From a virus, in the IMG/VR virus record IMGVR_UViG_3300042471_000228, positions 1 to 64,000 of that record: a stretch of DNA of 64,000 bases, one strand, 5' to 3'. Positions 2,303 through 64,000 of this stretch are shown piece after piece. The notes under the pieces are model-generated. The model was not told the origin of the DNA and searched no databases. It was given only the letters and a program-made list of their open reading frames with translations. Every line of letters starts with the position of its first letter. Position 1 is the first letter of the stretch. A program made the translations under genes and the position numbers.

Positions 2303-2403
2303 AGGTTTGGATTCTTAGGTTGTTTAGGTTTTTGTGTGCGAGCTTCTTTGATAATACTATCAAGTTTATTATTCTCGGGTTTGAAAGATGGCTTCTTTTC
2401 CAT
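2290..2403 (-). CDS. Small basic protein, 37 aa (not in ORF track)
   Basis: MEKKPSFKPENNKLDSIIKEARTQKPKQPKNPNLWRK*; ATG overlaps upstream stop (TAATG). Confidence 0.55.
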   Translation of the reverse strand: MEKKPSFKPENNKLDSIIKEARTQKPKQPKNPNLWRK

Positions 2404-2630
2404 TATTTTCTTTTCTTAACAGATCCACCTTTTTTAGCCACACTCATAGAACTAGATGGAGGCATACCTAGTTTCTGTTTCTTTGATTCATTTTCTTTTT
2501 TTGCTTTTTCTAGTGCAGCTTTATTTACAGCATCCACGTTTGATTGCTGTGAAGATTTTGTAGCTGAATTTGTAGATGAACTTTTCTTAGATGTTTGTCC
2601 ACCATTTTGACATTTTTTCATTTTCTTCAT
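2403..2630 (-). CDS. Small Lys-rich protein with xxGG motifs
   Basis: MKKMKKCQNGG...AKKGGSVKKRK; termini resemble 63201..63389. Confidence 0.75.
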   Translation of the reverse strand: MKKMKKCQNGGQTSKKSSSTNSATKSSQQSNVDAVNKAALEKAKKENESKKQKLGMPPSSSMSVAKKGGSVKKRK

Positions 2631-4925: not shown

Positions 4926-5098
4926 TTATCTTTTTCTTCTAGTTTACGACGTAGACGATCTTGTTCATCCATATTTCTTTTAATAAAGAACCATGCTAAT
5001 GCACCAAGTGCTAATGCTGCTAAACCTAAAGCACCATAGTTTGCTAACTGTTCAAATATTCCAAAACTAGGAACAGCTTGTTCTTGTAAGAGTACCAT
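4922..5098 (-). CDS. 58-aa single-TM holin-like paralogue (not in ORF track)
   Basis: MVLLQEQAVPSFGIFEQLANYGALGLAALALGALAWFFIKRNMDEQDRLRRKLEEKDK*; clear paralogue of 4647..4925; ATGA overlap. Confidence 0.75.
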   Translation of the reverse strand: MVLLQEQAVPSFGIFEQLANYGALGLAALALGALAWFFIKRNMDEQDRLRRKLEEKDK

Positions 5099-6142: not shown

Positions 6143-6541
6143 TTAGTTGATAATTAAATAGTTAAGAACTACATCTTCAGCGTCAATAGAATCATCATTA
6201 TGTAATACAATATGGACATCACCTGTTCCTGCAGATCTTGTTGTAGCAACTAATGCAGCATCATTTGAAGAACCAATTGTCAATAAAATAACTGAGCTTG
6301 GTAATATTTCTGTACTTGCTAAGTTGAAAGAAGCTCCACCCATATCAATATCACCTAAAAAAGTAATCACTCCAGCTTTTGTAGTTACAGTCAAATCTCC
6401 CTCAGTAATATCAAAATCATAAGAACCTACTGTAATCTTTAAATTTGTGTATAAAGCATTCACGTGTCCGTAACGTGCTACTTGTGAGTCACTTGGTTTA
6501 GCAAAGTATTTCTTGAAGTTAAAGATGTCGATAAAAGCCAT
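6143..6541 (-). CDS. Putative virion decoration/fibre protein
   Basis: Shares 31-aa N-terminus with 5647..6141; different beta-rich C-terminus. Confidence 0.55.
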   Translation of the reverse strand: MAFIDIFNFKKYFAKPSDSQVARYGHVNALYTNLKITVGSYDFDITEGDLTVTTKAGVITFLGDIDMGGASFNLASTEILPSSVILLTIGSSNDAALVATTRSAGTGDVHIVLHNDDSIDAEDVVLNYLIIN

Positions 6542-22600: not shown

Positions 22601-23640
22601 CTTTTTTTGAAATTACCCTTTGTAGTTAGATACTCCATCATTGTATATAGAGTATCGTACTCGTTGTTTATTTGATCACGTAATGCTTCTTCTGTAATAG
22701 TAATACCTTGTCTTTGTTTACTTTTAATAATAGAACCTAGTGGTTGAATCTTACTATTCTTAATACTTTCGTTTATATCAAATATGCGCTTACCATTCTC
22801 GACAGTAAAACTTGGTATAGTTCTTAAAGGAAAATAAATTATATCTCCTGTGTCATCAGTTAGATTATAATCATTATCAAAGTATACAAGCTCTCCTTCA
22901 GGATTAGTAAATACAATATACATTTGCTTAGATATTCTAAGCTTGATATTTTCTTTGTCTCTCTCATATGGGTATAGTTTATCTTGTGGTAAACTGTATC
23001 CCGGAGTAAGCATGATTTGAATTTTCTGACCTCTGTAGAAGATAGTACCATCTTCATCGGGTAACATCTGTGTGTTAAGTAACTTTATAAAGTTATAATA
23101 CCAACGTAGGTCACGCTCTTCTCTTACTTCTTCCCCTGATGTAGTTAATACGTTGTCGGGTACTTGTACGAATCCTCCTTCAGATGCAATATCATTTACT
23201 GTATCTTTTATTCTAGGTTGAATAGAAACAACACTATTTACTTCTTTAACAGTGTCTTGTACTTTAGGTGTTAGAGTACTTCTGTAATCGTTTAAGTACT
23301 TAGTTACATTATCTATGGACTTATTAAAAGATATAATAACATCTTCTAGTGATCCTGGATCTAGTAACTTCTTCTCTCTTAAGGGTACGCGGATGCTTTC
23401 ATAAACACTCTTAGCTAATTCAATAGAACTAGGAGTAAGTCTAGCAACAGCTAATGCTTTTTGTTGGTCTCCAGTTTTCTCTAGCACCTCATTAAAGATA
23501 CCATTTATAAACTTTGGTAGGTCGACAACAGAATTCTTCTCAATTTTTTGAGCAAGCATTCCTGCTACTTTTCTATCAATTTTTGAGATATCTTCTTTAG
23601 ATAAACTCCATTCCCCTGAAGGATCACAAATTATACTCAT
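13612..23640 (-). CDS. Virion-packaged single-chain two-barrel RNA polymerase (crAss-like), with zincin domain
   Basis: GARIPTQG (17290-17304 core) and GGDFDIDKL (DFDID 17173-17187), matching phi14:2 gp66-type active site; ADAQSW; HEAWH at 21517-21531. Confidence 0.88.
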   Translation of the reverse strand: MSIICDPSGEWSLSKEDISKIDRKVAGMLAQKIEKNSVVDLPKFINGIFNEVLEKTGDQQKALAVARLTPSSIELAKSVYESIRVPLREKKLLDPGSLEDVIISFNKSIDNVTKYLNDYRSTLTPKVQDTVKEVNSVVSIQPRIKDTVNDIASEGGFVQVPDNVLTTSGEEVREERDLRWYYNFIKLLNTQMLPDEDGTIFYRGQKIQIMLTPGYSLPQDKLYPYERDKENIKLRISKQMYIVFTNPEGELVYFDNDYNLTDDTGDIIYFPLRTIPSFTVENGKRIFDINESIKNSKIQPLGSIIKSKQRQGITITEEALRDQINNEYDTLYTMMEYLTTKGNFKKRLKLNFNYATHGFLYREFNNKKPLSELMDASAFDPIIITSTEAKGEVKTAFMYPGVSEPVPFVMNELPTDLAERTADLLLNDVFYENELLSPKSKGQIISQYIKLDIGKNFTYDLATNTVRINGEPVSADKEVAKKQIVDFLTREIKDTVGNNETVTYKNKLYYSAKNIDGNIYDFKLTPTKEGLDISIEQSPYKDWVFKNATSGVKVVKGEIREENAYIGFTIPIESSIIASKKMTDAEIAAFKKEQEEKQKNKTVKLEGLTDTDISELSNLLERRDMTGFDIVATPTQVAEAKTWFENTEISFTDSTGKVVRKKLSEVIPYTTMFNIANSNGDVRATWTRAGITLFQGSDYSDLYHEAWHGFTQLFLTGKQKLDLYNDLKSLGETISYYDNGWKTMKSSDLDFNKPEHILYAEEHLAEKFREFSLGKYTPKTAKQKSIFRIILDAIKALFGFSTPEDQLTPGMRIGEVFQKLRAGDLTNYSFDQSNIQFNRLNSGIPALADSTSPIKTLNVTASLMAVDGLTDAISSTIDEFNAKTGTNKFTLGVFSDEKIKNAILTEAKLKFINKITELKLKSDNAVGFEKEKLERSIQTLEWVTSQFDVDKPNQGFLKYYNERTGFFDIKLDAKIMDEDMTVAGQSDIDPDLMADREGMFAGSGTEFSAKDRMGDSMVFILNSLFEKTADGFVYNDLGFRQTVPFDTAFAVIISSTNNTLTPEEMYDNLILSSNTKTKNGKTNYKFEFLKQLVSKLGNPDSANNFITQRLWGEFFFAARLDKQSGVQVTVQKHSAITEEDSFDGVRVVVGESDSADKAFGRMLNQRFQTGRVQSDYITKDRKTNEYVLDLAKLYEDFPDIQTVRAQPLKFLQSLGIDITDNLRIVNELNKGLLRDMFDALVVSKVATKKQVVGLSPENPNHLFYDQNKLWSRLLELESKFSGFNAGYMFTNVNGDPQSEMNNPSTAGNQIHYINNANTFAELINNPETEHYSTDRNPFVKTSRLFKLLFGNNLGYKNTADGQKIELSVESLLGTQAVDVIDNEIVGIIKGMKSSASDEQTAYLRDYMLNILHGASEAFRHADKTSAYIVRAVAGKTLYYVNPKNFSGNAGREQANKILLGYVASELERIKKVNTKNAVGENASDIILTGGSPGKQITYQSAGSEFVIFDDILKNDLKETLKGLDVNTVEEFQALLVERPELQERIIKDLNDYFDKLALEDYTQLKNYGVTKATGFFDVVKSRLGMTNSNNDTLLKVTSEAFTYNSFIHRIELGTLTYGDPALFFHDKEEHMKRIPGFFATGRIGRTDRSMNTFIEKNKGRYHESPWFKNSGYPEPTNTMASQSTIIPVAVVEDPRVTSVYLNEMIAAAKKAGLAESDFNEYKNMKVADAQSWITFDAYRALELRFNNWSPYKEELYNKILNGEQVDDAVALKAFMPVKKLQYSGPIRLQNFAANAFHKYSLIPLIPSVIKQTRLESLHNKLISQGLAYAVTHSGSKVASLGSEKELDGFYTDDLSPKWESDEFNFTKNFIFVNYLKEQLVTKDKFKEKIKFPTQIRKLITIGLTEDSPLVKSYLSNIDKMQKVAENELKMELGYNDPKSRRKGEPSINLQKFVEYIQNSLTAQDLAEQDIDFITIGDDGKFVYPLDLSSDPGKIEKIISSIVNKRINEQPVYGEQYIQGSGVGFEKFSKPTVDDLIKYGSDGLPFYKFNGDKKSASAMKIKISLHGKFKNLLKLEHLDGKAIGTLDRLNAMLKEDTWLDKGDHRKMVTLIGARIPTQGPNSMEFMEVFEFLPEIAGNIMILPLEIVAKSGGDFDIDKLITMVPGIVDNEGVIEIEKPKATKKLLNTILEQKAETLKEIKELRKKYIKQYLKPEFQEEITKLEQEQVDAYKDFLSQWTNNYYVGGASEKYYSRINSAKEQIDEIYDQLEKDILETRKGEFDQYINEIAPLKQKLRELNREQNSYNPKAFQQDVMDSMKNILSRPDNYINLVRPNGTNIYTEDPVIDDKSIVDALDPYNREYNSKSTKTNPLNGKKMSPTKIFENRYNIVKASALNNGKQGVGMLATGNTFHALATLSGTTMSPVREETKLVKRKPVTYTLTQELLVPHNSKIINGQKEIDFSSFKDADLDKYVRDVVSELMNGYLDVAKKDWVYSINAIKQLEPEFEFMMLAGVPVKVAALMLAQPYVREYLRYFREYSSPYSVLNPEIELSNTNFAKRQAIIQVILDKEMPGVFPVNKEGDPNTFINTPQMLVNLRNSFLDFEQDVDREPIFTFENLKENLKKSNAAFNEQQFAHFVEIIYMASKLTELKMAIRFDTLKNTSYFDAQKQERGLYKILDGAFSKDVIERLLDKTVLKSFRTTDLLRAAIATALPVRANTQLNNTLDAVISDQSLDPEEIEDFAKEFNDDFILYLFQNKLYTFDSSKDTYRSIELNDTVPIKEQAFLKYGAFLDPETGEFLVDKAQIIKDFKSRAFSKDGYGGQVKLAKLPESTFSRLSKDKQIPMYYKFVLEREYLRAAIPYETITSNFEFIKFLTQRQLNTDIPARYEEFIRNKALENLYIDGALFDASYTVGNGIINATAKFTDILESHPDLAKSYPVLDIIGVASSGTMRFFKLNDRNSDGTILTSYKNQMNDLANPAVQKVKNDEENLYISNFFAKMKTIAYLQAGNNKLSNLYMMSIFDNKDLAAYMASDVKKIADGSDIEKELSDFSEKFIRSYRTRGRFVYTNYAAAAPTVAKSTIPIVVSQSKVKTSSVFLNEDTGEIEAVYQYNESMFETSKSFTGRDEQIYTKTEYKVTPETVQAMFDANPEAVYVFEDVYPTVKLDSEGNVIVGDRPTTPTQIDQQAFRAGLATGNSFAIPVVKKDGSLPNPKGNAVAKDLIDQYIKELVALKESGKTVVFPSNGIGAKLLGFYRNNMGSISLRENAERNTDLYLYLSRQLLENFGYRNPKFELITKNFNTEELGGMGTGLEFIQEYYKSKDIQRKTDKEVSDYINKCKGIS

Positions 23641-34332: not shown

Positions 34333-36951
34333 TTAACCTTGATCATAATAACCACCATATCCAGCTCCTGTTTGCACAGGATACATTGATGCTAATGATT
34401 TCATATAGTCATCTGCGTAATTGGATTGAGTATTATCTGACATTAATTTCAAGAGTGTTTCATCATCTTCTTCTGGAAAACGATTTCTCAATAATGCAAA
34501 AGCATCCGCTTTCTGTTGACTATAAGGATTACTTGGATTTAGTTCATCACCTCCTGTAAATTCTACAAAACCACCAGAAGAAGGATCTGTCATATAGTGA
34601 TTACCATACACTTCGTTTAGTGCTTGTCCTTGTGCTCTATTAGTAATGGCATTAATTAGAGATTCTCTAATTCCTTGTCTTGCTTGAGCATTAGCATTAT
34701 CAAACTGTTGATTAGCAATAATAGTTTTATCATAGTAATCTTGCGCAGATGCTGCGTTTGCCATTCCAGTTTGATTGAATATATTTGCTTTTGTCAACTC
34801 AAACTGATTTGCCGCACCTACATTTATATTGTTGTATCTACCTAGTGTATCAGCAGTAGCTTTAGCAGCATTACCTTGAATCTGAGAAGCGCGTGCGTTG
34901 TATGCTTGTGCAGGTGCATATGCTCCAGCACCTTGAGTAGCAATATTTGCTTGCTCAGATATTGCAGCAAGTTCTCTAGTGGGATCGTAAAAAGTTGGTT
35001 CTGGTATATACGGTGCTAACTTAGGTGTCCACGGCATGTATTTCTTTACACGCATTAAATCACCAAAAGCACCTGCTGTAGCAATAGCATCTTGTAACCA
35101 CCATTCAGCACCAGGTCTTTCACGTCTTTGAGTTACATCAAGTTCATTTGTTGGTATTTCTCCTGGTCCTTCTGTTTCATCAACTTCAACATCTTGCATC
35201 TCAGGATCAATAGTGTATGCATCTAAATGATCTAGACCAATTTTTGCATCATCAGCACTTCTATAAATTTTACCTTCTGCACCTTTAAATGTTCTTTCAT
35301 TTCTTGCCGTCAATCCATCTTTAGGATCTGTTACAAACTCTTTAGTATATAGTTTAGATGGATCGTTTACTTTATCTCCTAGTTTCTTTACATCATAACC
35401 ATACAAACTAAGCATACCTTTACGATTTTGAATCTTAGACGAATCATCTAAATTTTCATAATCATCAAAAGTACCATTAGGATTAGTAGCTTGCCAGTAT
35501 CTGAATTCTAACATATCAGGATCAGCAAATCCATAGAAACCATCATCTCTTTTCTTTCCTTTTCCTTTTGGTACATTAGCTTCAGTTGCATTTTCATATT
35601 GAGATTGTGAAGCAATTTTAAATCCAGGAGCACCAAGATCTTTTAATCCTGTGCCTTTATTGTAAGATGATACTTTTGTAATAAAGTCTTTATCTTTTAA
35701 AGACATTGCATCTTTTGCTCCTGCATAGATGATCCAACCATCATTTGTTTTTTTAGCAAATCCTTTTTTATCTAGATCTTCTAAAAGAGCATTTGCTGCT
35801 TTTACATCCTCTTCAATAGATCCGTACTGAGGTTTATAATTCTCAGCACCTGAGAAAGACTGTCTTGTAGGAGTATTCTTATAGCCTATTTTAGTTACTT
35901 GTCTAAGTTTACCATTAGCATCTCTAAAGTAGTCACCAGCTTTTAAACTAGGATCACCTTGTTTTTTTACCTTAGACTCATCAATTTTTGCTTTAGATGG
36001 TTTACTCTGACTTACAGTTTTCTGAGTAGTCTTATTTGTTGTAGTGTTCATTACTGTACCAGGCTTAATAAAATCATTTGGTACACTAACACTTTGCGGC
36101 ATTGCAACACCTCTTCCGTCTACATAATACGCTCTACCTTGTGGATCAACATTTAAGTATATACCACTAGTAGGATCGAACTGTTGCTGTTGTCTTAGTC
36201 TATCTAATCTCCTTTGCAAACGATTCTGTCTTCTTACATTCATACCAAACTGTGCTTCCGGCATAGTTTCTTCATCTACAAATTCTTGTTCAGAAGGATT
36301 CTCCATTTCATACATGTCATCATCCAGCATCTCTTCCTGACCAGTCTCTTCAGTTCTTAATGGTAGCATATCCTTAGGATCAATCTGATTTACCATCATA
36401 TATGGAAGTGCTACAGTAGGAATACCATCTGGGAATCCTTTCATAGATTCTTGATATGCAGCAAGCTTTGCTAACTTAATATTGTAGTTAGAAATCATCT
36501 GCTCAGCAGTTTCCTTGCTACGCTTATCTAAATCAGGATCAGCAAGAATCTCACGATACTTATTGATATCATATTTCTTAGCAATAGCTGCAGGAGTTTT
36601 AGATTTAGTTTCTCCAAACTCTGCAAGAATCTCAGGATCCTTTATAATCATTGCACGAGTGTCACTAAAAATAAAACTCTCATCTGGTACATTTAAGGGT
36701 ACACCTCCTTGAGCATGTCTTTTACCTGATATATTAAAATGTGCAGGTAGACCACCAACTTTAGTTAGTACTGTTTCACCACCTTCAGCTTCTATAGTAG
36801 CTTGCTTTCTAGGTGCAGCTGTCAAGTTTTTTCTAACCTTCATAGGTTCTTGACTCATACCATTAGGTATGTACATTGGAGCTAGTTGATTGTAACTAAC
36901 TCCTCCGTCTTTTTTCTGAGGTATGCTTTTTATTTTTACTCTTCTAACCAT
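34333..36951 (-). CDS. Cargo protein (crAss cargo-protein-1-like, 872 aa)
   Basis: IEAEGGETV...GKRHAQGGV...FIFSD N-terminal domain; Q/N/A-rich helical C-terminus. Confidence 0.6.
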   Translation of the reverse strand: MVRRVKIKSIPQKKDGGVSYNQLAPMYIPNGMSQEPMKVRKNLTAAPRKQATIEAEGGETVLTKVGGLPAHFNISGKRHAQGGVPLNVPDESFIFSDTRAMIIKDPEILAEFGETKSKTPAAIAKKYDINKYREILADPDLDKRSKETAEQMISNYNIKLAKLAAYQESMKGFPDGIPTVALPYMMVNQIDPKDMLPLRTEETGQEEMLDDDMYEMENPSEQEFVDEETMPEAQFGMNVRRQNRLQRRLDRLRQQQQFDPTSGIYLNVDPQGRAYYVDGRGVAMPQSVSVPNDFIKPGTVMNTTTNKTTQKTVSQSKPSKAKIDESKVKKQGDPSLKAGDYFRDANGKLRQVTKIGYKNTPTRQSFSGAENYKPQYGSIEEDVKAANALLEDLDKKGFAKKTNDGWIIYAGAKDAMSLKDKDFITKVSSYNKGTGLKDLGAPGFKIASQSQYENATEANVPKGKGKKRDDGFYGFADPDMLEFRYWQATNPNGTFDDYENLDDSSKIQNRKGMLSLYGYDVKKLGDKVNDPSKLYTKEFVTDPKDGLTARNERTFKGAEGKIYRSADDAKIGLDHLDAYTIDPEMQDVEVDETEGPGEIPTNELDVTQRRERPGAEWWLQDAIATAGAFGDLMRVKKYMPWTPKLAPYIPEPTFYDPTRELAAISEQANIATQGAGAYAPAQAYNARASQIQGNAAKATADTLGRYNNINVGAANQFELTKANIFNQTGMANAASAQDYYDKTIIANQQFDNANAQARQGIRESLINAITNRAQGQALNEVYGNHYMTDPSSGGFVEFTGGDELNPSNPYSQQKADAFALLRNRFPEEDDETLLKLMSDNTQSNYADDYMKSLASMYPVQTGAGYGGYYDQG

Positions 36952-36957
36952 AATTAA

Positions 36958-39417
36958 TTAGTCTAAGTATTCAACTTGTCCACCCATGTTAATGATCTCC
37001 TGAATCTCTTCGTCACTCAAATAATATTCTCCACCTTTCTTATAGGATCCTCCATATCTAGCATATGGTGATGTAAAGTTATATCCGGGAAATTGTACAG
37101 GTACTTGTTGATCAAGTCTAAAGTATCCTTGATCATTATAATCACCTCTGTCCTTTTTTGTATTTTTTGTATATACCTGATCGGCAGACATTTTATTATA
37201 CACTTCCTTTTTCTTCTTTTCATTACCCATATTCTGAGTAAAACCTTCTATAAGATTTAAACCTGCCAACATTGTTGGTGCTTCGTATGGATTATAACTT
37301 CCCAATTTTTGTCTTACTCTTGTACGACTCTTTAGTTCAAGATCTTCATTTGCTCCTTCAGGCGCTTCTTCGTAAATAGTATTACCTGCGTAATCTTCAC
37401 GTTCTGTAGTATCGTATCCATCCATACTATAACCAGCTGTTCCAAATGGATCTTCTTCTTCTTCTTCATATTCAGAACCCATTTGATACTGAATGAGACC
37501 ACCATATTCTTTTATGTATTCAGGTCTCATATATTGAGAGAAAGTTTCTGCTTCAGATGGTCCCATCATTCCAGGTGCAGGTCGCCAATTACCTATTCTA
37601 TTATAGCGATTCTCTAATCTGTCTAGTTTATTGGATTCTCGTCTAGTTAAACCTTGTCCGTATTGCTCTCCTAAATTACCTTCACGTTGATACAACTCAT
37701 CTATTCTAGAACCTAAATTACGTCTTCTATTCTGGAAAGATTGATTACGCAGTTCAGAATATGCATTGTTATAACCTCTTGGATCATACACAGATTTCAT
37801 AGGAATCTGTTCTTTCTGAGATTTCATTTCTCCGACAGACATAGGATTTCCTCTCTCTGTATAATTAATATCACGATTATTTCGTGCAGCTCTATTAAAG
37901 ATAGAACCTCTTTCACCAGTAGATTCTGCAGATTCTGCAGATTGAGATCCTGCGGTATTACCTAATGCATTTCCTGAAGGACCATATGTATCAAAATAAA
38001 AGTCTATAGACTTAGCTCTGTTACCAGGTAATAGAGCACGTCTCTTATTGATACTCATACGAGATAAGAAAGTTCTGTATTCAGCTGGTGTCATTCCTGC
38101 TGCAGCAGCTTCTTTCTTTTCTTGTTCACTTCCTGCTGCGGGTGCTCCTGCATTTGTAGAAGTTCCTTCTTTAGTTCCTTCTTTTCTTGCTGCTGCTTCC
38201 TCTTCTTTCTTCTTAGCAATATCATCTATAGTTTTTTCTACAATAGATTCTTTTTTAGAATCATCTTCTGTTTTTAAAGTAGTAGGACCTTTTGATTGCA
38301 ATTTAACAGGGGAATCCGTAAAAATAGGATCAATTATACTAGCATCAATTTCTTGAGGTGCAGCATTAGGATCTATGGGAACAGGTAGATATTCTTCTTC
38401 TTCTCCTTCAGGAATTAGTGAGATATTACGCATTTTATTTCGAAAATCTAATTGAGATTGAATATCAGTAGGATTTTCTGGAATGTATTCGTTATCCGGA
38501 TATGGTGATAAAGAATTTCTATTTATTTCATATTGTGAACGTACTTCAATAGGTGTTCCTGCTCCAGGTACATTTTCTGAAAGAATGTTTTGATTATATG
38601 ATGGATTCTGAGTAGTAAGACCTAATGATGGAATACTTGGAACATAGTTAACTATATTAGGATTAACTCCTTGTGCAGCATTAGGATCTATAGGAATAGG
38701 TAAATATTCTTCTTCTCCTTCAGGAAGTAGTGAGATACCAGAACGTAATATAGGAGGATTCATATGATCAAACGGTAGTGTTGCTTGATCTCTAAAATTA
38801 CGACCCATCTGTGCAATAGGCATCTGTTTAGTCTTTATCTTTTTAACGTACACATCATCAGGTGTACCCGCCCATTCTTCAGCAAGTGTTAAGAAATTAT
38901 CTTGAAGTTTTCCTATATTAGCATTATTACTATATGCATCCATCCAAGCATTTGCTTTTGTGAAATCAGGTTGAGGACCAGCAAATCCACCGTATTGGAA
39001 CATATTAGTCAATTCATTCTCGTACTCAGAAGCTTCGTTCATTAACTCTTCTTCCATAGTAGACATAGCTTTTTCTTTGACCTTTCTCAAGAAATCAGCT
39101 ACTCTTGTTGACTTTTGAGAACCCATGTCCATGGAAGATCCACCATCCTGCATCTTTCCATAATGCTGCATGTACTGCATATTCATCTTCTGAATATCAT
39201 TCATTGCTCCACCATCCTGAAAAACAAAAGGTGTTTTAGGAGTAGGTGCACCATAGTTAAAGAACTGGTTCATAGTAGGTGCTTGTGGAAATGCTTCACC
39301 ACCGGTTTTTCTAATCCGTGGTGCAAAACGTGATGGGTTACTATACATAAGGAAATCTCTTAATTCTATTGCAAGAGGATTGTTTTTTTTATTATTACGA
39401 GAGTTTCGTCTTTTCAT
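36958..39417 (-). CDS. Low-complexity cargo/internal virion protein with many xxGG motifs (819 aa)
   Basis: FQDGG, MQDGG, FQYGG, KEYGG, ARYGG, YKKGG; P/E-rich, probably disordered. Confidence 0.6.
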   Translation of the reverse strand: MKRRNSRNNKKNNPLAIELRDFLMYSNPSRFAPRIRKTGGEAFPQAPTMNQFFNYGAPTPKTPFVFQDGGAMNDIQKMNMQYMQHYGKMQDGGSSMDMGSQKSTRVADFLRKVKEKAMSTMEEELMNEASEYENELTNMFQYGGFAGPQPDFTKANAWMDAYSNNANIGKLQDNFLTLAEEWAGTPDDVYVKKIKTKQMPIAQMGRNFRDQATLPFDHMNPPILRSGISLLPEGEEEYLPIPIDPNAAQGVNPNIVNYVPSIPSLGLTTQNPSYNQNILSENVPGAGTPIEVRSQYEINRNSLSPYPDNEYIPENPTDIQSQLDFRNKMRNISLIPEGEEEEYLPVPIDPNAAPQEIDASIIDPIFTDSPVKLQSKGPTTLKTEDDSKKESIVEKTIDDIAKKKEEEAAARKEGTKEGTSTNAGAPAAGSEQEKKEAAAAGMTPAEYRTFLSRMSINKRRALLPGNRAKSIDFYFDTYGPSGNALGNTAGSQSAESAESTGERGSIFNRAARNNRDINYTERGNPMSVGEMKSQKEQIPMKSVYDPRGYNNAYSELRNQSFQNRRRNLGSRIDELYQREGNLGEQYGQGLTRRESNKLDRLENRYNRIGNWRPAPGMMGPSEAETFSQYMRPEYIKEYGGLIQYQMGSEYEEEEEDPFGTAGYSMDGYDTTEREDYAGNTIYEEAPEGANEDLELKSRTRVRQKLGSYNPYEAPTMLAGLNLIEGFTQNMGNEKKKKEVYNKMSADQVYTKNTKKDRGDYNDQGYFRLDQQVPVQFPGYNFTSPYARYGGSYKKGGEYYLSDEEIQEIINMGGQVEYLD
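38358..38737 (-). repeat. Intragenic direct repeat (~65 bp) encoding ISL[LI]PEGEEE(E)YLP[IV]PIDPNAA
   Basis: Copies at ~38358-38425 and ~38674-38737. Confidence 0.85.
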
Positions 39418-39454
39418 CTGGCTAATATAGTGATTATATACAAGATACTAAAAT

Positions 39455-42400
39455 TTACTGAGTATTCCTAGGAAGACTCTTGATCTTTACTTTTCTAACA
39501 GAACCTCCATTGTTTTTAAAATAAAAGTCTCTACCATCAGGATTTGATATACCATCAGGTAGCATGTTTTTAGCTGAGGCTTTATATAGAATTTCTTTTT
39601 TAACTTTATTAGGTATAGGTAATAACCCAATTGTTGTACCAGTAGCATTATTAAGTATGTCTTCTAATGCTTCTCTTCCTTTATATTTTAATGGTCTATC
39701 ATCATTAAATATTGTACCTAGTTCATGTCCTACTCCCATGATGTTTGCACCTAACCAACCTAGTGCTGGAGAAACAATTGGTATATTACCTGTTTTATTT
39801 GCTATAGCTTGTTGAGTATACATTCCAGCTAAAGGATGTCTAAAATTATCTACTGGATCTTCTCCAGGTTCTAATCCTTCTGCTGCTTCACGAGCTGCTT
39901 TACCCATAGGATCTCCTAATGATTTATTTAATCTATCTTCAAATGACATACGTCTACTGCGAATCTTTAGAGGTTTTTCACTATGAGTAGAATCCCAAGT
40001 ATTATCTTGAGGATCATATATCATAGAAAACTTTTGTAATTCAGTAACAGGAATAATATTACCATTTGAATCTAGATATCTAGCATAAGATTTAAAATTA
40101 GGATCTAGATAAATACTTTGTCCAGTAGGTGTTTTATATTCCTTACCTTTAGTAGATCCACCTTCTTGTTTAACAGGTATTGAATCAAGTATCTTTTTTG
40201 TAAATGCGTTTCTGCTAACCATATCCTTACCTTTAGAGGTTCTCTTATATTCCTTTAGCATTTTCTGATGCGCTACTTCTTTTTCCTTAGGAGTTTTTGC
40301 ATTACTATACTCATCTATAGCTGAAGTAAACTTTGTAAAGTCCTTTATTACACCATTGTAAGTATAATCTACTATTAGATCTTTTAGCGTGTCAGGTACT
40401 TTATCAAAAGCATTTTTTCCATGTCTGTTGTTGTAAACTCTTTCAGCAGTAATTAGATGGTTTGCTAGATCTTTATTAAATAATTCTTCAGCTTGTTTTT
40501 CTGTTATACCTTTAGAGTATGTTCCCTTTCGTACTTCTTCATCAGTCAACTTATGTCCGTAAGCAATAGTTTTATTACCACCTTCTTTTGAAGCATGTGG
40601 TAACCACTTTTGAGAATTCTTATTAAATCCTTCTCTAATACCGTTCTCCTCTATTTTTAATGCCTTTATGTATTCTTCTGTTGGAGTATACTTTTTACGA
40701 AGTTGTTTAGGTGTACTAGGAACAGTTGTAGCATTAGCAGCAAATGGTTGGAAGTTTTCTCCCCATTGATAATTACCTATATCTCTAACTGCTCCAATAG
40801 TTTTAGGAACTAATGGATTTGAAGCAGTCTCTAACAATTTTGCTTGCTTTGCAACTTTATTTGCTGCTTTAGTAGCATTAGCTAATTTAGCAGTTTGTTG
40901 TGCTGCACGTAACCATTTAGCAGCACCTGCTGTAGCAATATTTAATCCATCTAATGCAGCTCCTGATAAATCTCCTTCATATAAATTTTTACCTAATCCT
41001 ATTGCAGATGCTCCCATTCCTATATATCCTGGTACAAAAGATGCCGCATCTAATGTTAAATCAAATGCATCAGACGTATCTGTTGATGGTTTGGTATTTC
41101 TTTTCCAATTTGCATTTTTATATTCATCAACGGTATTCCATCCCATAGCTTTCGCACGTCTCTCTAATTCTTTTTGATCAACTTGACCTTTAGATTGATA
41201 CTTTACTAAACCCCCGTCTTTGAATTCGTACTTACCCAAATAGATACCTTCTACTGCACCACCTTTTTTCATTGTTTGTTTATCATACACGGTAACTAGA
41301 TCTTCATATTTGAATCTATCATTTCCTGCAGCTTTAGCTTGACTCCTTCTATTGTTTATATAGTTATCATAGGAACCAGCATCTACTAGATCTTTTGCAA
41401 TCTTTCCTACAGACTGATTGTATGCAATACCAGAAAGTTTTGCTAATTGATCCGCTGTCAGATTGATACCTTTATTATTAGATATCTCTTTTAAGAATAG
41501 ATAGTCTTTTGCAATTTTATAGAAAGTTGGTAAAGCTGCCTTCTCAGGTTTATCTAACTCATAATCAGACTTTATCAGTTTTTTCCTTAACTCTTCATTT
41601 AGATTAGTTTCATCTTTAAGTTTTGTTAAACCCATTGACTTCTCTCTATCCGAAAGGAATGTATCCTGTAATGTTTTTTCAAATGCATTAACTTGTTCAG
41701 AACTTTTACCAGCATATGTTTCAAGTGTAGGTATTGCTCTTGATACACGCATCAATTTATCAAACTCATTCTCAGATATTGGAATATCTTTTAACAAAGC
41801 TTTTTTGTTATTCTCAATTGTCTTCAAGAATTTGTAAGTAGTCTTTCCAGAAATACTTTCAGCTAATCCATCAAATTCATTTCTTGCTAGTGCTCCTTTA
41901 GGATTAAACTTACCATATTCAGTTTGATAATAGTTAACACCTTGTTCAGGAATACCGGATCCATCAGCTAGTGCACCTTCATAATAGTTAGGTCTAGTGA
42001 TACCAGATATCATTGAAACTTTGTTCTTTCCATTACCTTTAACCTTTCCTTCTAAGAAGTTAGTTAAAGGATCTTTTTCAACTTTACCGTGTACGTTGTG
42101 CTCAACAAATAGTTTACCTTGGTCATCTGCTTTTACTACACCAACGTGTGTTGTAAATAATCTATTATTTAATGACTTAGTTTGATTGTAAGCTTCTTCT
42201 GTATAGTTAGATCCTTCATAGAATATATTAACAACGTCACCTGGTTTTACTTTACTATCCCAAGTAACACCTCCACCTATAATATCTTTTAGATAAGATG
42301 CTTGATTCTGTAAGTTAGATTTTATAAATGATGCAATCTGATCTTTATTTTTTAAATCAGGAACCTGATCTCTTTCTGGTAAACCTGCAAATACTAATTT

Positions 42401-45400
42401 ACCACCTTTACTTTGAATGTTATCTGATATGTGCCATGCAGAACCACTTAAACCTAGATTCTCACGCGCTTCAAATCCAGCAGCATCTTCGTCACAAATA
42501 GTTCCATTAACATACTGAGCACACATTCCAAATGGTGTCTTAGAATCAGGGTTTAATTTAAACTTAAACGCAACTCTAGGATTAAACTCAGTTATATCAT
42601 CCGTGTTAAACTTGGTACCTTTGAAATAACCTTTACTATTTAGACTCTTTTCAAAATCTCTTATAGCTTGGTTTGAAGCACTGATATTAGCAGAACCATC
42701 TTCTTGAATAAATGTATTAAGATCTAATGGCGTCTGTATACCAAGTGTGGTTTTAGAATCATTTTGATTTTTAAAATCCTTTATAGCTTTTTTGGTAACG
42801 TCATCTAGAACACCTTCTTTATAAGGTTTATTATGTTCATTGTATTTCTCAACAGCTTCTCTTGTTTTTTTACCAAATATTCCATCAATACCATCTTTGT
42901 TAGGACCGTATTTACCTAACATATCCATGAGTCCGTTACTAGCTAGGAACTTCTGAAGCTCAATAACTTCTTCTTTAGATTTATAATTTTTAGGATCAAT
43001 CTCTTTAGACTCAAATACACCAGCGTTTTTAAAATTATTCTGTATGCTTTTAATATCATCTTCAGAATAGTCAGACTCATTCATGAATCTTAGTTTATAG
43101 TCTGCAGATTTTTTATAGTCCTTTACTAGATTCTCTTTGTTATTATATAGAGGTTCTGTGGAACTGAACTTTGGAGAAGTTTCATATTGCTTAATTTCTT
43201 TTTGAATTGCCGCTTCTTCTTGTGCAGTTTTTAATGCTGGAAACTTATCTTGAAAATAAGCATCCATGTTTTTCAAATCTACTTGTGGTTTCTGTAGAGC
43301 GATCCTTTCTTGTGGTATACCTAAAGCTTTTTCAAATCTATCTTTTTGAATAGCTTGTGCGTATTTCTCAGAACCACCGTCTACCATTTTCACAAGACCT
43401 CCATCTCTAAACTCATACTTACCTAGATAGATACCACCATCTCTCATTCCTTCCGGTTCTTGAGATCTATTATATAATTGTGAACCTACATATCCTGCAC
43501 CTATAGCAGGTACTGCAGCTGGTAACATTTTAATAAGTCTTCTCTTTTCTTCTAAAGATGTTTCTGGTTTAAAGTGTTTATTAAGATTTCCTGTTTCAAT
43601 TAAGTAATCTGTAAAATCATCTCTATCTTGTTTAATAACATCAATAGCTTGTTGCATAGATAAACCATCTCTTTTCATGAGCTCTGATGCTAGATTTGCT
43701 CTAGCTCCTGATAACTCAGCGTGTAATTCAGTAGGAGCAGACGCCCACGTTCGATACGTCTTAGGAGCATTTGGTTGAACCATTGCTCTATTAAAATCTG
43801 CAGCAATAGGATTATTTGCATGACTTGTAAAATACTCATACTGAGGATCATAACTTTCTAAAGTTGATTCCCACTTTCCTATCTTTTGAGCATCGTGTGC
43901 TATTTCATGAGCATTTGTGTGTCTTATTTTGTTAGGATCAATTAATCGATTTTGATTAACATCAACTAATACATCCTTAGTTTTTGTTTTAAAAGGATTT
44001 GATAAACTCCGAGGTAACTTCTCTTTTGCTAAGTGAGTTGTTAATACAGGACGACCCTGAGTACCTAGTGTAATTGTACTATGCTGAGTTCTTACACCAC
44101 CTATATTATCAATATTTCCTTTTAAAAATAGCTTGTCATATTCTGGTAAGTTTTGAAAACTAGGATCATTCTCATCAAAGTATACTAGTTTATTTTTTTT
44201 ATCATTTGGCAGAACAGTTTCTAATTTATCAACATCTCTATCAGCATTTGCTCTTTTTAAATCTAATACTTTTCTTTCAAACTCAGGATCATAAATAGAA
44301 GTGCTATTTTTTAATTCATTTACTTTATTTAGATCTACATCATGAGAAGTAACCCAGTCACTTTCAAGTTTTCTACGATCATCCTGTAGTTTAAAAAACT
44401 CATCGGATAAACTTTCAAATCTTTCAAAGTTATTAGGATCTTTTAATTGCTCACTTATACTCTCTAATTGGTTATCTATATTATCAATATTCGCAGAAAA
44501 CTCTGAGTCAGCTTTTGATCTTGCTTTTGAAATTTCATCAAGTTGTGGTTTTACCCTAGTGTTGTAATCATCTAATCCAGCTTGATTATATGTCCATTTT
44601 TTTTGAAATTCAGTAGCATCATCAAAAGCTTTTTGTTGGTCAACTCTTGTAAAGTTTTCTGAATAACCCGATTCAGGTACTCTATCTATACTTACTCTTT
44701 TACGTTCTAAATCCTGTAGACCTTCTAACTCTATGTCATCTACACTTCTACCAATATTATTTTCTTTAAAGAATTCATCTATAGTATAATTGTCATATGT
44801 TTTAGGAGGTATGCTTTTTGAAACTTTTTTTGCAAACGATCCAAATGGTAAAAATCCTGCAGTGTTTAATCCTAGTTCTCCAGCACCACCCCAAGTAGTA
44901 TATGTTTCTTTTTCACCTAAATCTCTACCAACTCTTCCTACATCCATTAATACAGATGCTGGATTGAACGCTCCTATTACATCACTCATAGGAGATGATG
45001 TAGGATAGTTACCACTTAGGTTACCTTGTGGTACATAACCTCTTTGCATTAAAGATCCTACTGCATCAAGAGGTTGATCCATTGCGTAAATAAACTGATT
45101 CTTTAATCTCTCAGTACCATCTGTAGCAGGTTTTATTTCTCCTTGATCTAATAGTTGTTGCTTGATTTGTTCTTTCTTTTCTTCCTCAGCAATCTTCTTT
45201 TTAGTAGCTGCAGCTTTAACTTTCTTTGCGGGAGTCATACCATCCCTTTCATCTCTTTTAGCCTCTTCTACTCTAGGATTAGTTACATAAGTATTATCTT
45301 GAACAGCTGTTTGAGGTCTCAGACCTTCCATCATATATTCATCAAAACTAACTTGTCCTTTCTTCTGATACTTTACTAAACCACCATCTTTGAATTCGTA

Positions 45401-46231
45401 GTCTCCCATATAGATACCACCTCCTTGCTGTTTTTTAATAGTACCTTTTTCTCTTTCGTAATCTATCTCTTCTTGTTCTGCTGGTTTGTTTTGCCATCTT
45501 TTAAGATCTTTATCGTAATAGTAAGTTCCTTTCTTTAATTGACCGGACTTCTGTGTATAGTTAGGATCATAAGAATCAAGAGTTCTATTCTTACTAATAC
45601 TTAAATTAACTGGTTGCAATTTAGTTTCTGATACTGGTAACTTAGTAATCGGTCTAGGTTCTACTCTTTCTAAAGGTGGTTCAAATACAACAGGTCGAGT
45701 TGGTTTTTTATATTGCGGATATAGTGTATTAATATCACCCATAGTGGGTTTATTACCATTAGCAAAAAAATTACCAGGATCTAAATAATAAGGTTTATTT
45801 CTTGGGGTTCTTATTTCCTCACCAAGTTCTCTAGCTCTTTGAGCAACTAAATCATGTGATACAATATTCCAATTTTCTCTTCTAGCATCTTCTAAAAGAC
45901 CAGGCTCATTAAAAGCGTTATATAAACTTAAACTATCAGCATATGCTTGATTAGCTATTTTAAATTCTTTAGGATCTGATATAACACGTGGCACTTGTCT
46001 ACCTTTTTGATATTTACCTAATGGTACTTCAGTAACATACTTACCAGGAAATTCATATTCTCCACCGGGCATCATCATCTGTTGATTACCAAGATCATCA
46101 ATACCAAGTATTGGGAACTTAACATCCTTCATAGTAATCCTGTTACTAGGAATGATGTTCATGTCATTAAATCTATCAGGACTATCTGGTAAATAACCCG
46201 TGTTCGTAATTTTTACTTTACGCTTATTCAT
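39455..46231 (-). CDS. Modular virion cargo polyprotein (2258 aa): zincin, PG-binding, CHAP-like, SLT-like, pre-toxin-TG-like, lysozyme and C-terminal toxin-like domains
   Basis: HEIAH (43895-43909); LQKFL..DGIFGKKT; CAQYV..HVG; LET..SMGL..AYN; LDAASFVPG; EENG..TIAYGHKL; DNFRH..HE..EDILNN. Confidence 0.72.
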   Translation of the reverse strand: MNKRKVKITNTGYLPDSPDRFNDMNIIPSNRITMKDVKFPILGIDDLGNQQMMMPGGEYEFPGKYVTEVPLGKYQKGRQVPRVISDPKEFKIANQAYADSLSLYNAFNEPGLLEDARRENWNIVSHDLVAQRARELGEEIRTPRNKPYYLDPGNFFANGNKPTMGDINTLYPQYKKPTRPVVFEPPLERVEPRPITKLPVSETKLQPVNLSISKNRTLDSYDPNYTQKSGQLKKGTYYYDKDLKRWQNKPAEQEEIDYEREKGTIKKQQGGGIYMGDYEFKDGGLVKYQKKGQVSFDEYMMEGLRPQTAVQDNTYVTNPRVEEAKRDERDGMTPAKKVKAAATKKKIAEEEKKEQIKQQLLDQGEIKPATDGTERLKNQFIYAMDQPLDAVGSLMQRGYVPQGNLSGNYPTSSPMSDVIGAFNPASVLMDVGRVGRDLGEKETYTTWGGAGELGLNTAGFLPFGSFAKKVSKSIPPKTYDNYTIDEFFKENNIGRSVDDIELEGLQDLERKRVSIDRVPESGYSENFTRVDQQKAFDDATEFQKKWTYNQAGLDDYNTRVKPQLDEISKARSKADSEFSANIDNIDNQLESISEQLKDPNNFERFESLSDEFFKLQDDRRKLESDWVTSHDVDLNKVNELKNSTSIYDPEFERKVLDLKRANADRDVDKLETVLPNDKKNKLVYFDENDPSFQNLPEYDKLFLKGNIDNIGGVRTQHSTITLGTQGRPVLTTHLAKEKLPRSLSNPFKTKTKDVLVDVNQNRLIDPNKIRHTNAHEIAHDAQKIGKWESTLESYDPQYEYFTSHANNPIAADFNRAMVQPNAPKTYRTWASAPTELHAELSGARANLASELMKRDGLSMQQAIDVIKQDRDDFTDYLIETGNLNKHFKPETSLEEKRRLIKMLPAAVPAIGAGYVGSQLYNRSQEPEGMRDGGIYLGKYEFRDGGLVKMVDGGSEKYAQAIQKDRFEKALGIPQERIALQKPQVDLKNMDAYFQDKFPALKTAQEEAAIQKEIKQYETSPKFSSTEPLYNNKENLVKDYKKSADYKLRFMNESDYSEDDIKSIQNNFKNAGVFESKEIDPKNYKSKEEVIELQKFLASNGLMDMLGKYGPNKDGIDGIFGKKTREAVEKYNEHNKPYKEGVLDDVTKKAIKDFKNQNDSKTTLGIQTPLDLNTFIQEDGSANISASNQAIRDFEKSLNSKGYFKGTKFNTDDITEFNPRVAFKFKLNPDSKTPFGMCAQYVNGTICDEDAAGFEARENLGLSGSAWHISDNIQSKGGKLVFAGLPERDQVPDLKNKDQIASFIKSNLQNQASYLKDIIGGGVTWDSKVKPGDVVNIFYEGSNYTEEAYNQTKSLNNRLFTTHVGVVKADDQGKLFVEHNVHGKVEKDPLTNFLEGKVKGNGKNKVSMISGITRPNYYEGALADGSGIPEQGVNYYQTEYGKFNPKGALARNEFDGLAESISGKTTYKFLKTIENNKKALLKDIPISENEFDKLMRVSRAIPTLETYAGKSSEQVNAFEKTLQDTFLSDREKSMGLTKLKDETNLNEELRKKLIKSDYELDKPEKAALPTFYKIAKDYLFLKEISNNKGINLTADQLAKLSGIAYNQSVGKIAKDLVDAGSYDNYINNRRSQAKAAGNDRFKYEDLVTVYDKQTMKKGGAVEGIYLGKYEFKDGGLVKYQSKGQVDQKELERRAKAMGWNTVDEYKNANWKRNTKPSTDTSDAFDLTLDAASFVPGYIGMGASAIGLGKNLYEGDLSGAALDGLNIATAGAAKWLRAAQQTAKLANATKAANKVAKQAKLLETASNPLVPKTIGAVRDIGNYQWGENFQPFAANATTVPSTPKQLRKKYTPTEEYIKALKIEENGIREGFNKNSQKWLPHASKEGGNKTIAYGHKLTDEEVRKGTYSKGITEKQAEELFNKDLANHLITAERVYNNRHGKNAFDKVPDTLKDLIVDYTYNGVIKDFTKFTSAIDEYSNAKTPKEKEVAHQKMLKEYKRTSKGKDMVSRNAFTKKILDSIPVKQEGGSTKGKEYKTPTGQSIYLDPNFKSYARYLDSNGNIIPVTELQKFSMIYDPQDNTWDSTHSEKPLKIRSRRMSFEDRLNKSLGDPMGKAAREAAEGLEPGEDPVDNFRHPLAGMYTQQAIANKTGNIPIVSPALGWLGANIMGVGHELGTIFNDDRPLKYKGREALEDILNNATGTTIGLLPIPNKVKKEILYKASAKNMLPDGISNPDGRDFYFKNNGGSVRKVKIKSLPRNTQ
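41181..45418 (-). repeat. Three dispersed linker repeats encoding GIY[ML]G[DK]YEF[KR]DGGLVK
   Basis: Copies at 41181-41248, ~43388-43435 and 45351-45418; first and third match at 57/68 nt by manual count. Confidence 0.9.
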
Positions 46232-63200: not shown

Positions 63201-63389
63201 TTACTTACGTTTTTTTACAGCTCCTCCTTTCTTCATAGAGGACTTCTTTGCACCGACAATTCTATCAGCTGCTGTAGGTTTAGGATTATTATCCACACCT
63301 GCTTTTACTGAAAGCATTCCGAAAGATGTAGACCCACCAGATTTCATTTTCTTCATGGATCCACCACATTGCATACATTTCTTTTTCAT
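63201..63389 (-). CDS. Small Lys-rich protein with xxGG motifs
   Basis: MQCGG, MKSGG, MKKGGAVKKRK. Confidence 0.75.
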   Translation of the reverse strand: MKKKCMQCGGSMKKMKSGGSTSFGMLSVKAGVDNNPKPTAADRIVGAKKSSMKKGGAVKKRK

Positions 63390-63391
63390 AA

Positions 63392-63535
63392 TTATTTATT
63401 TTTTGCGATTCGTTTTAAAGTTTTAGCAAGTGCTTTCCTCTTAGGAGTACACGTAGGTTTAGTCATTGGAGTACAATAACCCTTGTGTTCTGGGTTGATT
63501 GCTTTTTGAATCCATTTTTTATCTTTCTTCGCCAT
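63392..63535 (-). CDS. Small basic protein, 47 aa (not in ORF track)
   Basis: MAKKDKKWIQKAINPEHKGYCTPMTKPTCTPKRKALAKTLKRIAKNK*. Confidence 0.75.
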   Translation of the reverse strand: MAKKDKKWIQKAINPEHKGYCTPMTKPTCTPKRKALAKTLKRIAKNK

Positions 63536-63541
63536 AGTGTT

Positions 63542-63793
63542 TTAACACTTCCATTTACGGAGTGACTTATTAATTCTGCTGTTAGGATCATTAGCTGTCT
63601 TAGATGAGGTATTCTTCTTCTTCATACCTTCCATTCTAGCACAGAATGATCTCTTTCTAGGACCACCTTCTGGTTGTGGTGCTTTTAAATCTGAACCAGG
63701 ATTCTGTCTTTCATAAGACTTTCTTCCTTTTTCATTAAGACCACCAGAAGGTGACTTACCAGCTTTACGAGTCCATGCAGCAGATTTCGCCAT
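63542..63793 (-). CDS. Small basic phage protein (DUF6321-like)
   Basis: AWTRK.GK...GGLN.KGR, RSFCARM, SRINKSLRKWKC. Confidence 0.75.
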   Translation of the reverse strand: MAKSAAWTRKAGKSPSGGLNEKGRKSYERQNPGSDLKAPQPEGGPRKRSFCARMEGMKKKNTSSKTANDPNSRINKSLRKWKC

Positions 63794-63939
63794 TACTTCT
63801 TTTTCTTACGCATTAGCATTTTCTCGCGCTTCTCTTCTTTCTTACCCTCAGTCTTTTCATGCTTCATAGCAGCAGACTTAGAAGAATAGCGCTCTTCTGC
63901 TTTAGTACCTTTGTACTCAATGATCTTTTTCTTTTTCAT
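63793..63939 (-). CDS. Small basic protein, 48 aa (not in ORF track)
   Basis: MKKKKIIEYKGTKAEERYSSKSAAMKHEKTEGKKEEKREKMLMRKKKK*; TAATG coupling. Confidence 0.7.
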   Translation of the reverse strand: MKKKKIIEYKGTKAEERYSSKSAAMKHEKTEGKKEEKREKMLMRKKKK

Positions 63940-63940: not shown

Positions 63941-64000
63941 TTACAATCCTTCTAAAAATTCAGTTGTTAAATCTTCCCATTCTCCAACACTATTATATTT
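63941..64000 (-). CDS. 3' end of an upstream gene (truncated by window)
   Basis: Open frame KYNSVGEWEDLTTEFLEGL* ending 1 nt before the next ATG. Confidence 0.5.
   Translation of the reverse strand, partial: KYNSVGEWEDLTTEFLEGL

Follow-up and report, generated by a model that had tools for sequence, protein, structure and literature searches.

The cargo-position genes and their Gly-Gly motif

The window analysed here, from a crAss-like phage, consists of the first 64 kb (64,000 nucleotides) of the 92.5-kb linear IMG/VR virus record IMGVR_UViG_3300042471_000228 (CheckV completeness estimate 77%). It has a GC content of about 34% and encodes several proteins in which short peptides capped by Gly-Gly (GG) pairs, hereafter called tags, recur. 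The 1732-aa (amino acid) muzzle-position gene, p1732, is followed in order by p2258, p819, p872 and p1053, and then by giants of 2499, 3342 and 2340 aa. Since the muzzle-position, cargo-position and giant genes lie in the same order as crAss001 gp44 to gp50, we refer to these genes as 'cargo-position' genes, the packaging of their products being presumed. Beyond the window, the record encodes a major capsid protein (genome 66492-68114) that matches Pfam Crass_capsid at E 3e-31, as well as a portal (69480-72230) and a large terminase (72232-74439) that match PHROG families at E 1e-90 and 1e-56, respectively. The portal (L018:6480-9230 in our contig numbering) is extremely conserved, with 77-96% identity over the best 120 homologs; 6,342 homologous proteins were found at E ≤1e-20, one of them a Tara Oceans sequence. 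Relative to it, the cargo genes beside the muzzle-position gene are hypervariable.

An earlier note on this DNA had proposed that a pentapeptide close to [MFYAK][QKR]xGG recurs in otherwise unrelated proteins as a phage-wide signal for capsid loading and/or cleavage. All the pentapeptides that it listed are indeed present in p2258, p819, p872 and the small basic proteins, as are the single-G variants YQKG, AQMG, YQMG and AQFG. The second Gly of the motif lies at aa 270, 283, 932, 944, 952, 1657, 1673, 2024 and 2242 of p2258, at aa 39, 69, 92, 143, 639, 789 and 795 of p819 and at aa 16 of p872; the proteins at 2403-2630 and 63201-63389 also bear the motif. When the 75-ORF (open reading frame) proteome was compared with 1000 composition-preserving shuffles, the pattern of the earlier note was found 23 times against 5.0 expected and the stricter pattern [MF][KRQ]xGG 11 times against 1.24 expected, both patterns having been defined post hoc, after inspection of the data. 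Plain GG was not enriched (143 observed, 135 expected). All 11 strict sites are in p2258 (5), p819 (3) and three small basic proteins (3), and none was found in the giants (2340, 3342 and 2499 aa), p1053, p1732 or the other 14,600 aa. Taken alone, p872 is not significant (1 motif, 0.3 expected).

The shuffle counts, in this proteome and in the anchor family described below, led us to reject chance or composition as the source of the motif. The proposed enrichment over a composition-matched background thus holds for some cargo-position proteins, while the phage-wide extent does not, the motif being confined to a subset that excludes the giants and p1053. Nor can it be a general cargo code, as the RNA-polymerase-position giants and p1053 hold cargo positions without bearing it. 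These findings support the conclusion that the motif is real, that it is kept in relatives, and that it is confined to cargo-position proteins encoded after the muzzle-position gene, in which it lies between modules or at the ends of the protein.

Tags at the joints and ends of p2258

Two Pfam domains are found in p2258, PG_binding_1 (aa 1086-1150) and Phage_lysozyme (about aa 1883-1959); a Pfam search of four large segments of the protein at E up to 1 returned these alone, and a PDB sequence search with p2258 gave no matches. Its module 3 resembles papain-fold enzymes of the NlpC/P60 or CHAP type, a likeness that is a lead only (0.82-0.87). BLAST against family members divides p2258 into at least eight sub-modules, which reappear in these proteins in other orders and positions. 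The boundaries fall at the motif sites 270/283, 932-952, 1657/1673, 2024 and 2242 and at two motif-free places. The suggestion that the motifs of p2258 sit at domain boundaries is borne out for these motif sites and fails for the plain GGs at 56, 448, 711, 1276, 1319 and 1884.

The same joints appear when DNA is compared with contigs of relatives (numbered L002, L003 and so on). L002 matches the window at 96.9% identity between 43438 and 31000 and bears no relation to it upstream, which places a mosaic breakpoint at the upstream edge of the second of three linkers in p2258 (Table 1). Homology to L003 is lost at 46001 (p2258 aa 77, the end of the anchor domain, where L003 carries the linker) and resumes at 39516, in the C-terminal tag of p2258. 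A tail made of GG plus a basic 'header' peptide (see below) also ends the homologous protein in L003, L014, L020, L021, L023 and L025 and in many family representatives. Within the anchor family, the boundaries of local alignments are 2.5-3.5 times enriched at ≤5 aa from the motif, and fused and split gene arrangements in relatives differ exactly at GG joints.

The linker peptide, about 25 residues long, occurs three times in p2258. The DNA of the three copies is only 74-82% identical and, over a 16-residue core, synonymous and nonsynonymous codon differences number 8 and 3, 3 and 2, and 9 and 1 for the three pairs. Since the differences are mostly synonymous, selection acts on the peptide rather than on DNA identity, and a recent DNA duplication is ruled out as the origin of the copies. 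In AlphaFold2 models, the segment with linker copy 3 has a predicted local distance difference test score (pLDDT) of about 27-37, with a weakly predicted hairpin YEFK-DG-GLVK. The pLDDT is 80-94 in the lysozyme module (aa 1849-2019) and drops to 44 at aa 2020-2029, which hold KQEGG.

Taken together, these data give good support to the view that GG-capped tags stand where exchangeable cargo modules meet and where they end. Purifying selection maintains the tags as peptides; they fall in flexible stretches beyond the folded domains and coincide with recombination or mosaic boundaries. At natural C-termini they are shortened to GG-plus-tag.

A large anchor family carries the same few tags

The N-terminal anchor domain of p2258 was used to define the family. 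Searched as a profile, it retrieved 4,199 clusters at E ≤0.001 among 1.84 billion representatives, and the anchor is nearly always N-terminal, in proteins of 84 to 3028 aa. In the alignment of the anchor in relatives (alignment A2), homology ends at the GG immediately past it. Family-wide counts of motif, spacing and HExxH were made on the best 150 representatives of the 4,199 clusters. The pattern [MFY][KRQ]xGG occurs in them 271 times, against 20 ± 5 expected, and one GG pair follows another at a distance of 6-8 residues 5.3 times as often as expected. Among the 127 proteins of at least 300 aa, the last GG lies 4-30 residues before the C-terminus in 98 (20 ± 4 expected). A logo of 331 GG contexts gives 0.59 bit at P5 (M/Y/F), 0.45 at P4 (Q/K) and 0.42 at P3, against 0.13-0.32 at P1'-P3'.

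The peptides that follow the last GG belong to a few conserved types: WLNKYK, [SA]VKRVKIKSLP.NWKTK, TKKKKQPGFQVLTDANGKYVFVKT, the EYYLSDEEIQ type, SFNPNTDEFLGFVD and basic tails. Where these tail peptides occur internally, a GG stands on either side of them; WL[DEN]x[YFM]Qx is the most frequent internal form, and GG-WL[DN]x[YF]QxGG is the prevailing tag in relatives. The window itself has three types: GG-(G)IY[LM]G.YEF[KR]DGG-LVK..GG, GG-x-x-[KR][KR]VKIKSLP... and, at the C-terminus, GG-EYYLSDEEIQ..GG.VEYLD.

The header, a basic peptide of the form ..[KR][KR]VKIKS[LI]P.., stands at the start of p872, where KKDGG follows it, at the end of p2258, after NNGG, and, in relatives, inside the p872 homolog after ...AQMGG. 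Of 62 headers, 46 are internal and 16 C-terminal, and just 2 keep a Met, which marks the header as a true part of the linkers rather than the relic of a former start. A GG-x-x-header DNA pattern retrieved only 7 contigs in IMG/VR. A relative's cargo-position protein, the 418-aa ORF at L013 18897, has two header-like peptides in tandem at its start (MPRVRIKRLPSNKRKVRIKKYP...).

A literature search with motif strings and for crAss cargo proteolysis and Crassvirales polyproteins found no published description of the motif. New here are the mapping of breakpoints onto linkers, the size of the anchor family, the classes of C-terminal tag, the enrichment in HExxH described below and the recognition of cultured phages, phi4:1 and phi17:2, that bear anchor and motif and have virion MS data on record.

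Candidate peptidase modules

The earlier note had also called for a maturation protease gene elsewhere in the genome. No annotated protease turned up in the ORFs scanned: Pfam on the 8 cargo and giant proteins and on 20 ORFs at 64-92 kb, and PHROGs on 20 others, gave no peptidase family, a survey that left out the small ORFs at 1-6.5 kb and that remote homologs could escape. Pfam on 24 long anchor-family members likewise gave none.

By contrast with these searches for known families, an HExxH signature is conspicuous in the family. Among the 150 representatives it occurs 59 times, against 1.2 ± 1.1 expected (about 50-fold), in several recurrent contexts; about a third of the representatives carry it, and a module of the p2258 type is found in 4 of the 150. 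HExxH is also present in p2340, p3342, crAss001 gp47 and phi17:2 gp042. Homologs of the candidate zincin-like module of p2258 that are just 27-33% identical to it all retain HExxH together with ELH[AS]E further downstream. This module has no Pfam match and matches no curated peptidase model; in the ESM Atlas it is closest to an unnamed viral cluster (0.94) and to LPD23 (0.84), as a lead only. The HExxH modules are thus candidate peptidases and may equally be effectors. The 3342-aa giant (13612-23640, - strand) has HEAWH at aa 704, similar to the HEAFH of crAss001 gp47, and near aa ~2150 the sequence GGDFDIDK, a DxDxD motif that resembles the catalytic motif of crAss-like virion RNA polymerases.

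Table 1. Coordinates of the cargo-position genes, their tags and modules, and the small basic proteins (window positions unless stated otherwise)
Feature	Position	Strand	Remarks
p2258	39455..46231	-	modular (polyvalent) cargo-position protein; first gene past muzzle-position p1732
N-terminal anchor domain, aa 1-73, then single-G YQKG, aa 74-77	46013..46231	-	42-72% identity across alignment A2
Linker copy 1, aa 266-297: KQQGGG IYMGDYEFKDGG LVKYQKKG	45341..45436	-	three-copy internal repeat; DNA repeat D2 at 45350-45425
Candidate zincin-like metallopeptidase module, aa 586-925	43457..44476	-	HEIAH aa 775-779 (43895-43909) and downstream ELHAE
Linker copy 2, aa 928-956: MRDGG IYLGKYEFRDGG LVKMVDGG	43364..43450	-	three-copy internal repeat; L002 breakpoint at upstream edge
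Linker copy 3, aa 1653-1687: MKKGG AVEGIYLGKYEFKDGG LVKYQSKG	41171..41275	-	three-copy internal repeat (peptide and DNA)
KQEGG, aa 2020-2024	40160..40174	-	C-terminal edge of lysozyme module; BLAST module boundaries 2018-2031
C-terminal tag KNNGG SVRKVKIKSLPRNTQ, aa 2238-2258	39458..39520	-	tail common to homologs in relatives
p819	36958..39417	-	second cargo-position protein; motif cluster aa 35-143, KEYGG/YQMG aa 635-647, C-terminal tag
p872	34333..36951	-	third cargo-position protein; header MVRRVKIKSIPQKKDGG aa 1-17, then folded domain aa 40-195
75-aa small basic protein	2403..2630	-	N-terminal KKCQNGG; C-terminal AKKGG SVKKRK
62-aa small basic protein	63201..63389	-	KKCMQCGG, MKSGG; C-terminal MKKGG AVKKRK
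Third small basic paralog, 109 aa	genome 64900-65229		just past window end

p819, p872 and the small basic proteins

The C-terminal tag of p819 reads ARYGG SYKKGG EYYLSDEEIQEIINMGG QVEYLD, and a tag of this type is common to the second or third cargo gene of the distant relatives L004-L015. The motif sites of p819 are retained in its 40%-identical L003 ortholog. The protein also contains an internal repeat, at 38358-38404 and 38673-38719 (- strand, 91% DNA identity), which encodes LLPEGEEEYLPIPIDPNAA twice.

In the AlphaFold2 model of p872, aa 1-37, which include the header and KKDGG, have a pLDDT of about 30 and aa 40-195 one of about 80-89. A PDB sequence search with the p872 alignment gave no matches, Foldseek with the model found nothing in the PDB at E ≤0.001, and a VIA-wide search was uninformative, being dominated by a long helix (640-780).

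The small basic proteins consist of little beyond an N-terminal C..CGG or CQNGG and a C-terminal KKGG-[SA]VKK[RK]K. The 62-aa protein had no match in five related virus records; a degenerate DNA pattern for such proteins retrieved one similar cluster, in the relative G004 (contig L027). Two clusters of tiny, very basic ORFs (37-83 aa) are present in the window, at 2156-2630 and 63201-63939 (- strand), and the former has counterparts in G004, including a 45-aa MAKV...SRPG...YRGQG homolog. The 83-aa basic protein at 63542-63793 (- strand) matches the C-terminal ~80 residues of at least 8 PHROG families, function unassigned (E down to 5e-45), and appears to be a module of wide occurrence, frequently joined to the ends of larger phage proteins. 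Adjoining the small basic proteins is the gene of a 319-aa head-module protein (window 63941-64000, continuing to genome 64900, - strand) with a match to Pfam LCIB_C_CA (beta-carbonic-anhydrase-like; E 1e-27), which is unexpected in a phage structural region.

Other genes in the window include two adjacent pairs of paralogs on the - strand: the short proteins at 4647-4925 and 4922-5098 are ~50% identical, and those at 5647-6141 and 6143-6541 are nearly identical over their first 30 residues and divergent thereafter. The 221-aa ORF at 1435-2100 (- strand), starting MIIYVATNKVNQKKYVGYT, is a candidate GIY-YIG homing endonuclease, as judged by eye.

Function of the tags

We considered several functions for the tags and tentatively favour, at somewhat less than an even chance, that of a flexible docking or threading handle that stays uncut. 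The motif would then be the visible core of a few GG-capped peptide tags, placed between exchangeable modules or at their ends in a single class of ejected proteins carried by the virion, comprising cargo proteins at the C1/C2 positions and some small basic proteins that are tag only. Each tag, short, exposed and separated from its surroundings by flexible glycines, would serve as a handle that holds its protein in the cargo zone of portal, tail or capsid. The tags would also keep the proteins strung like beads, ready to be threaded out via the tail, and for this no cutting of the tags would be needed. As every module would bear the same handles, modules could be swapped between phages without loss of packaging. 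This reading is favoured because the conservation of the tags goes far beyond the needs of a cleavage site, because they are found as terminal tails and in tag-only small proteins, and because the crAss001 example (see below) is ordered in the mature virion. Several points weigh against it. The crAss001 peptide falls one residue short of the family consensus and is only a putative homolog, and neither hhalign nor Pfam links p872 to gp45. Conservation around GG is biased towards the N-terminal flank, as expected of a protease site, and HExxH is enriched in the very same proteins. Furthermore, the giants must be packaged and yet have no tags, so that the tags cannot be a general loading signal.

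The main rival is that the tags are processing sites: zincin-like modules within the cargo proteins themselves would cleave the GG joints, either inside the head or once the proteins have been ejected, and would free the lysozyme, the cell-wall peptidase, other modules and small basic peptides. We regard this as a serious possibility, though a rather doubtful one. It would account for the skew of conservation to the N-terminal side of GG, for the tandem GG sites and the bracketing of tags by GG on both sides, for fused and split genes that differ exactly at joints, and for the excess of HExxH in the family, including the invariant HEIAH and ELHAE of p2258 and the signatures in the two giants, crAss001 gp47 and phi17:2 gp042; self-processing of polyvalent proteins by zincins has been proposed, with P1 DdrB as a precedent (PMC5512222). 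Yet no cleavage has been seen so far in the anchor family, the crAss001 study reports no proteolysis and resolves residues 425-552 as a single segment holding three GG pairs (PMC10172136), and the N4 virion RNA polymerase is packaged uncut despite its peptidase domain (PMC5512222). HExxH is found in only about a third of the representatives, with the p2258-type module in very few, and the modules match no Pfam peptidase family and could be effectors against host targets; a cleavage site alone, moreover, does not explain long conserved tags. The two functions could also be combined in a self-processing effector polyprotein, in which tags would first load the uncut string and embedded zincin modules would then cut the joints, within the head or following ejection, to free a phage-specific set of enzymes and small basic peptides, a scheme that we consider doubtful. 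Next among the rivals comes the view that the tags are passive hinges and recombination seams, that is, flexible spacers between which each module folds and unfolds on its own and which provide short patches of homology for module exchange, without binding or cutting. Mosaic breakpoints exactly at linkers, the extensive shuffling of module order in the family, the enrichment of alignment boundaries near the motif and the low pLDDT at the sites all agree with it. We nevertheless find it improbable, as the limited DNA identity of the linker copies and their mostly synonymous differences show that the peptide is selected, as simple spacers seldom keep 10-20 specific residues over thousands of lineages, and as neither conserved C-terminal tails nor tag-only small proteins would be expected of them.

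Two further mechanisms are unlikely. Maturation of the adenovirus or African swine fever virus (ASFV) type, in which a clan-CE cysteine protease would cut after GG in virion precursors phage-wide, is suggested by the superficial resemblance of GG-X with an upstream hydrophobic residue to adenain sites, and by the basic terminal peptides after GG, which recall adenovirus pVIc. We give it very little credence, since the register differs, the hydrophobic residue being at P5 and not P4, since no C5, C48, C57, C63 or C39 peptidase was matched in the scanned ORFs or in 24 long family members, and since capsid, portal, tail and RNA-polymerase-position proteins all lack the motif. Cross-linking, with [MFY]QxGG and [MFY]KxGG as donor and acceptor sites of a transglutaminase-like papain-fold module that ties the cargo together, seems the least probable of all. 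Tags of the LLQG type are substrates of microbial transglutaminase, Q and K alternate at the same position of the motif, and module 3 of p2258 offers a papain-fold lead; on the other hand, R also fills the Q/K position, and an NlpC/P60 or CHAP module beside PG_binding_1 is more simply a cell-wall peptidase.

Conserved tags at the joints would account for the free exchange of effector modules without loss of packaging, give a sequence rule for spotting ejected effectors in metagenomes and provide a means of bringing foreign proteins into these particles. Cutting of the joints by HExxH modules within the cargo proteins would amount to a novel form of virion polyprotein processing; a self-processing polyprotein of this sort would be a maturation and delivery code common to thousands of marine and gut crAss-like phages and unlike any known phage prohead-protease system.

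Comparison with known systems

The closest structural reference is gp45 of crAss001 (cargo protein 1; PDB 7QOG, 7QOI, 7QOJ, 7QOL and 8CKB; PF25725, crAss_CARG1), which is carried in the virion and encoded directly after the muzzle-position gene (PMC10172136). Like the window proteins, it has an N-terminal basic peptide followed by TGG, internal aromatic-GG sites including GGWLNTQGG, and C-terminal GG-basic tails, and it contains 21 GG pairs against 13 expected; it differs in having no N-terminal anchor domain. In the mature virion, segment 425-552 of gp45 is resolved on the portal wing and helix 214-245 binds the tail barrel (Bayfield et al. 2023, PMC10172136). Residues 425-436 are AFGGWLNTQGGD, AYGG occupies 208-210, four residues ahead of the helix, and the Pfam match to crAss_CARG1 begins at residue 424. 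Since GGWLNTQGG stands at the start of the resolved, portal-bound segment, it is not removed in crAss001. The study reports neither the motif nor any proteolysis, and its mass spectrometry (MS) peptide ranges for gp45 begin and end at or beside K/R and are thus uninformative on GG termini (PMC10172136).

No sequence relationship to this protein emerged. PF25725 did not match p872 aa 38-200, L006, L014 or phi17:2 gp041 even at E 10 (gp45 as control, E 2e-66), hhalign of p872 against gp45 gave 0.3%, and BLASTP and hhalign of p872, p819 and p1053 against crAss001 gp45 and gp46 gave nothing significant. A Foldseek search of BFVD with the p872 model retrieved the phi4:1 gp040 structural protein (E 1.5e-6) and crAss-like proteins of C1 type, namely a putative transmembrane protein of crAss002 (E 2.8e-4) and 'Cargo protein 1 compact domain' proteins (E 0.03-0.1).

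The anchor is 39.5% identical over 75 aa to gp040 of Cellulophaga phage phi4:1 and to its near-identical homolog phi17:2 gp041 (genus Lightbulbvirus). The latter has FQAGG, YQNGG, FQIGG and FQSGG and ends in KWGG-KKR, and the record of phi4:1 gp040 names it, on the basis of MS/MS, a virion structural protein. Both phages are in culture, and their records cite MS/MS analysis of virions. In contrast with the window, the anchor and a p872-like domain are united there in one 895-aa protein, and the 145-kb genomes of phi4:1 and phi17:2 lie outside the Crassvirales classification. Through the MS/MS record of phi4:1 gp040 and the synteny with the crAss001 cargo genes, p2258 is a candidate for packaging and delivery with the DNA.

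The GG-X maturation sites of adenain and of ASFV pS273R and the capsid-targeting sequence of T4 are, like the tags, short GG-containing or terminal peptides in internal virion proteins. The adenovirus/ASFV analogy drawn earlier breaks down on the adenain consensus (M/I/L)-X-G-G|X, whose hydrophobic P4 is here replaced by a hydrophobic P5, and no clan-CE protease turned up in the scanned ORFs. A T4-type targeting sequence, an N-terminal peptide of about 10 aa that the prohead protease removes, fits no better: the window tags lie internally and C-terminally as well as N-terminally, the 62 headers counted are internal (46) or C-terminal (16), and no prohead protease (gp21-type) was detected in the ORFs scanned.

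A further comparison is with the polyvalent proteins of phages and conjugative elements, giant multidomain proteins delivered with the DNA, in which cell-wall hydrolases and zincin-like peptidases are combined with uncharacterised domains in a highly mosaic fashion (PMC5512222). Iyer et al. 2017 proposed that their zincin peptidases process them, citing DdrB of phage P1 as processed before packaging, while the N4 virion RNA polymerase has such a peptidase domain and is nonetheless packaged unprocessed (PMC5512222). With PG_binding_1, Phage_lysozyme, the HExxH module and five or more other modules that are shuffled in the family, p2258 unites several unrelated effector domains as polyvalent proteins do. 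The text of that paper does not contain the word 'linker' (PMC5512222). In the proteins described here, by contrast, the joints themselves are conserved, and they are accompanied by a dedicated N-terminal anchor and by C-terminal tags.

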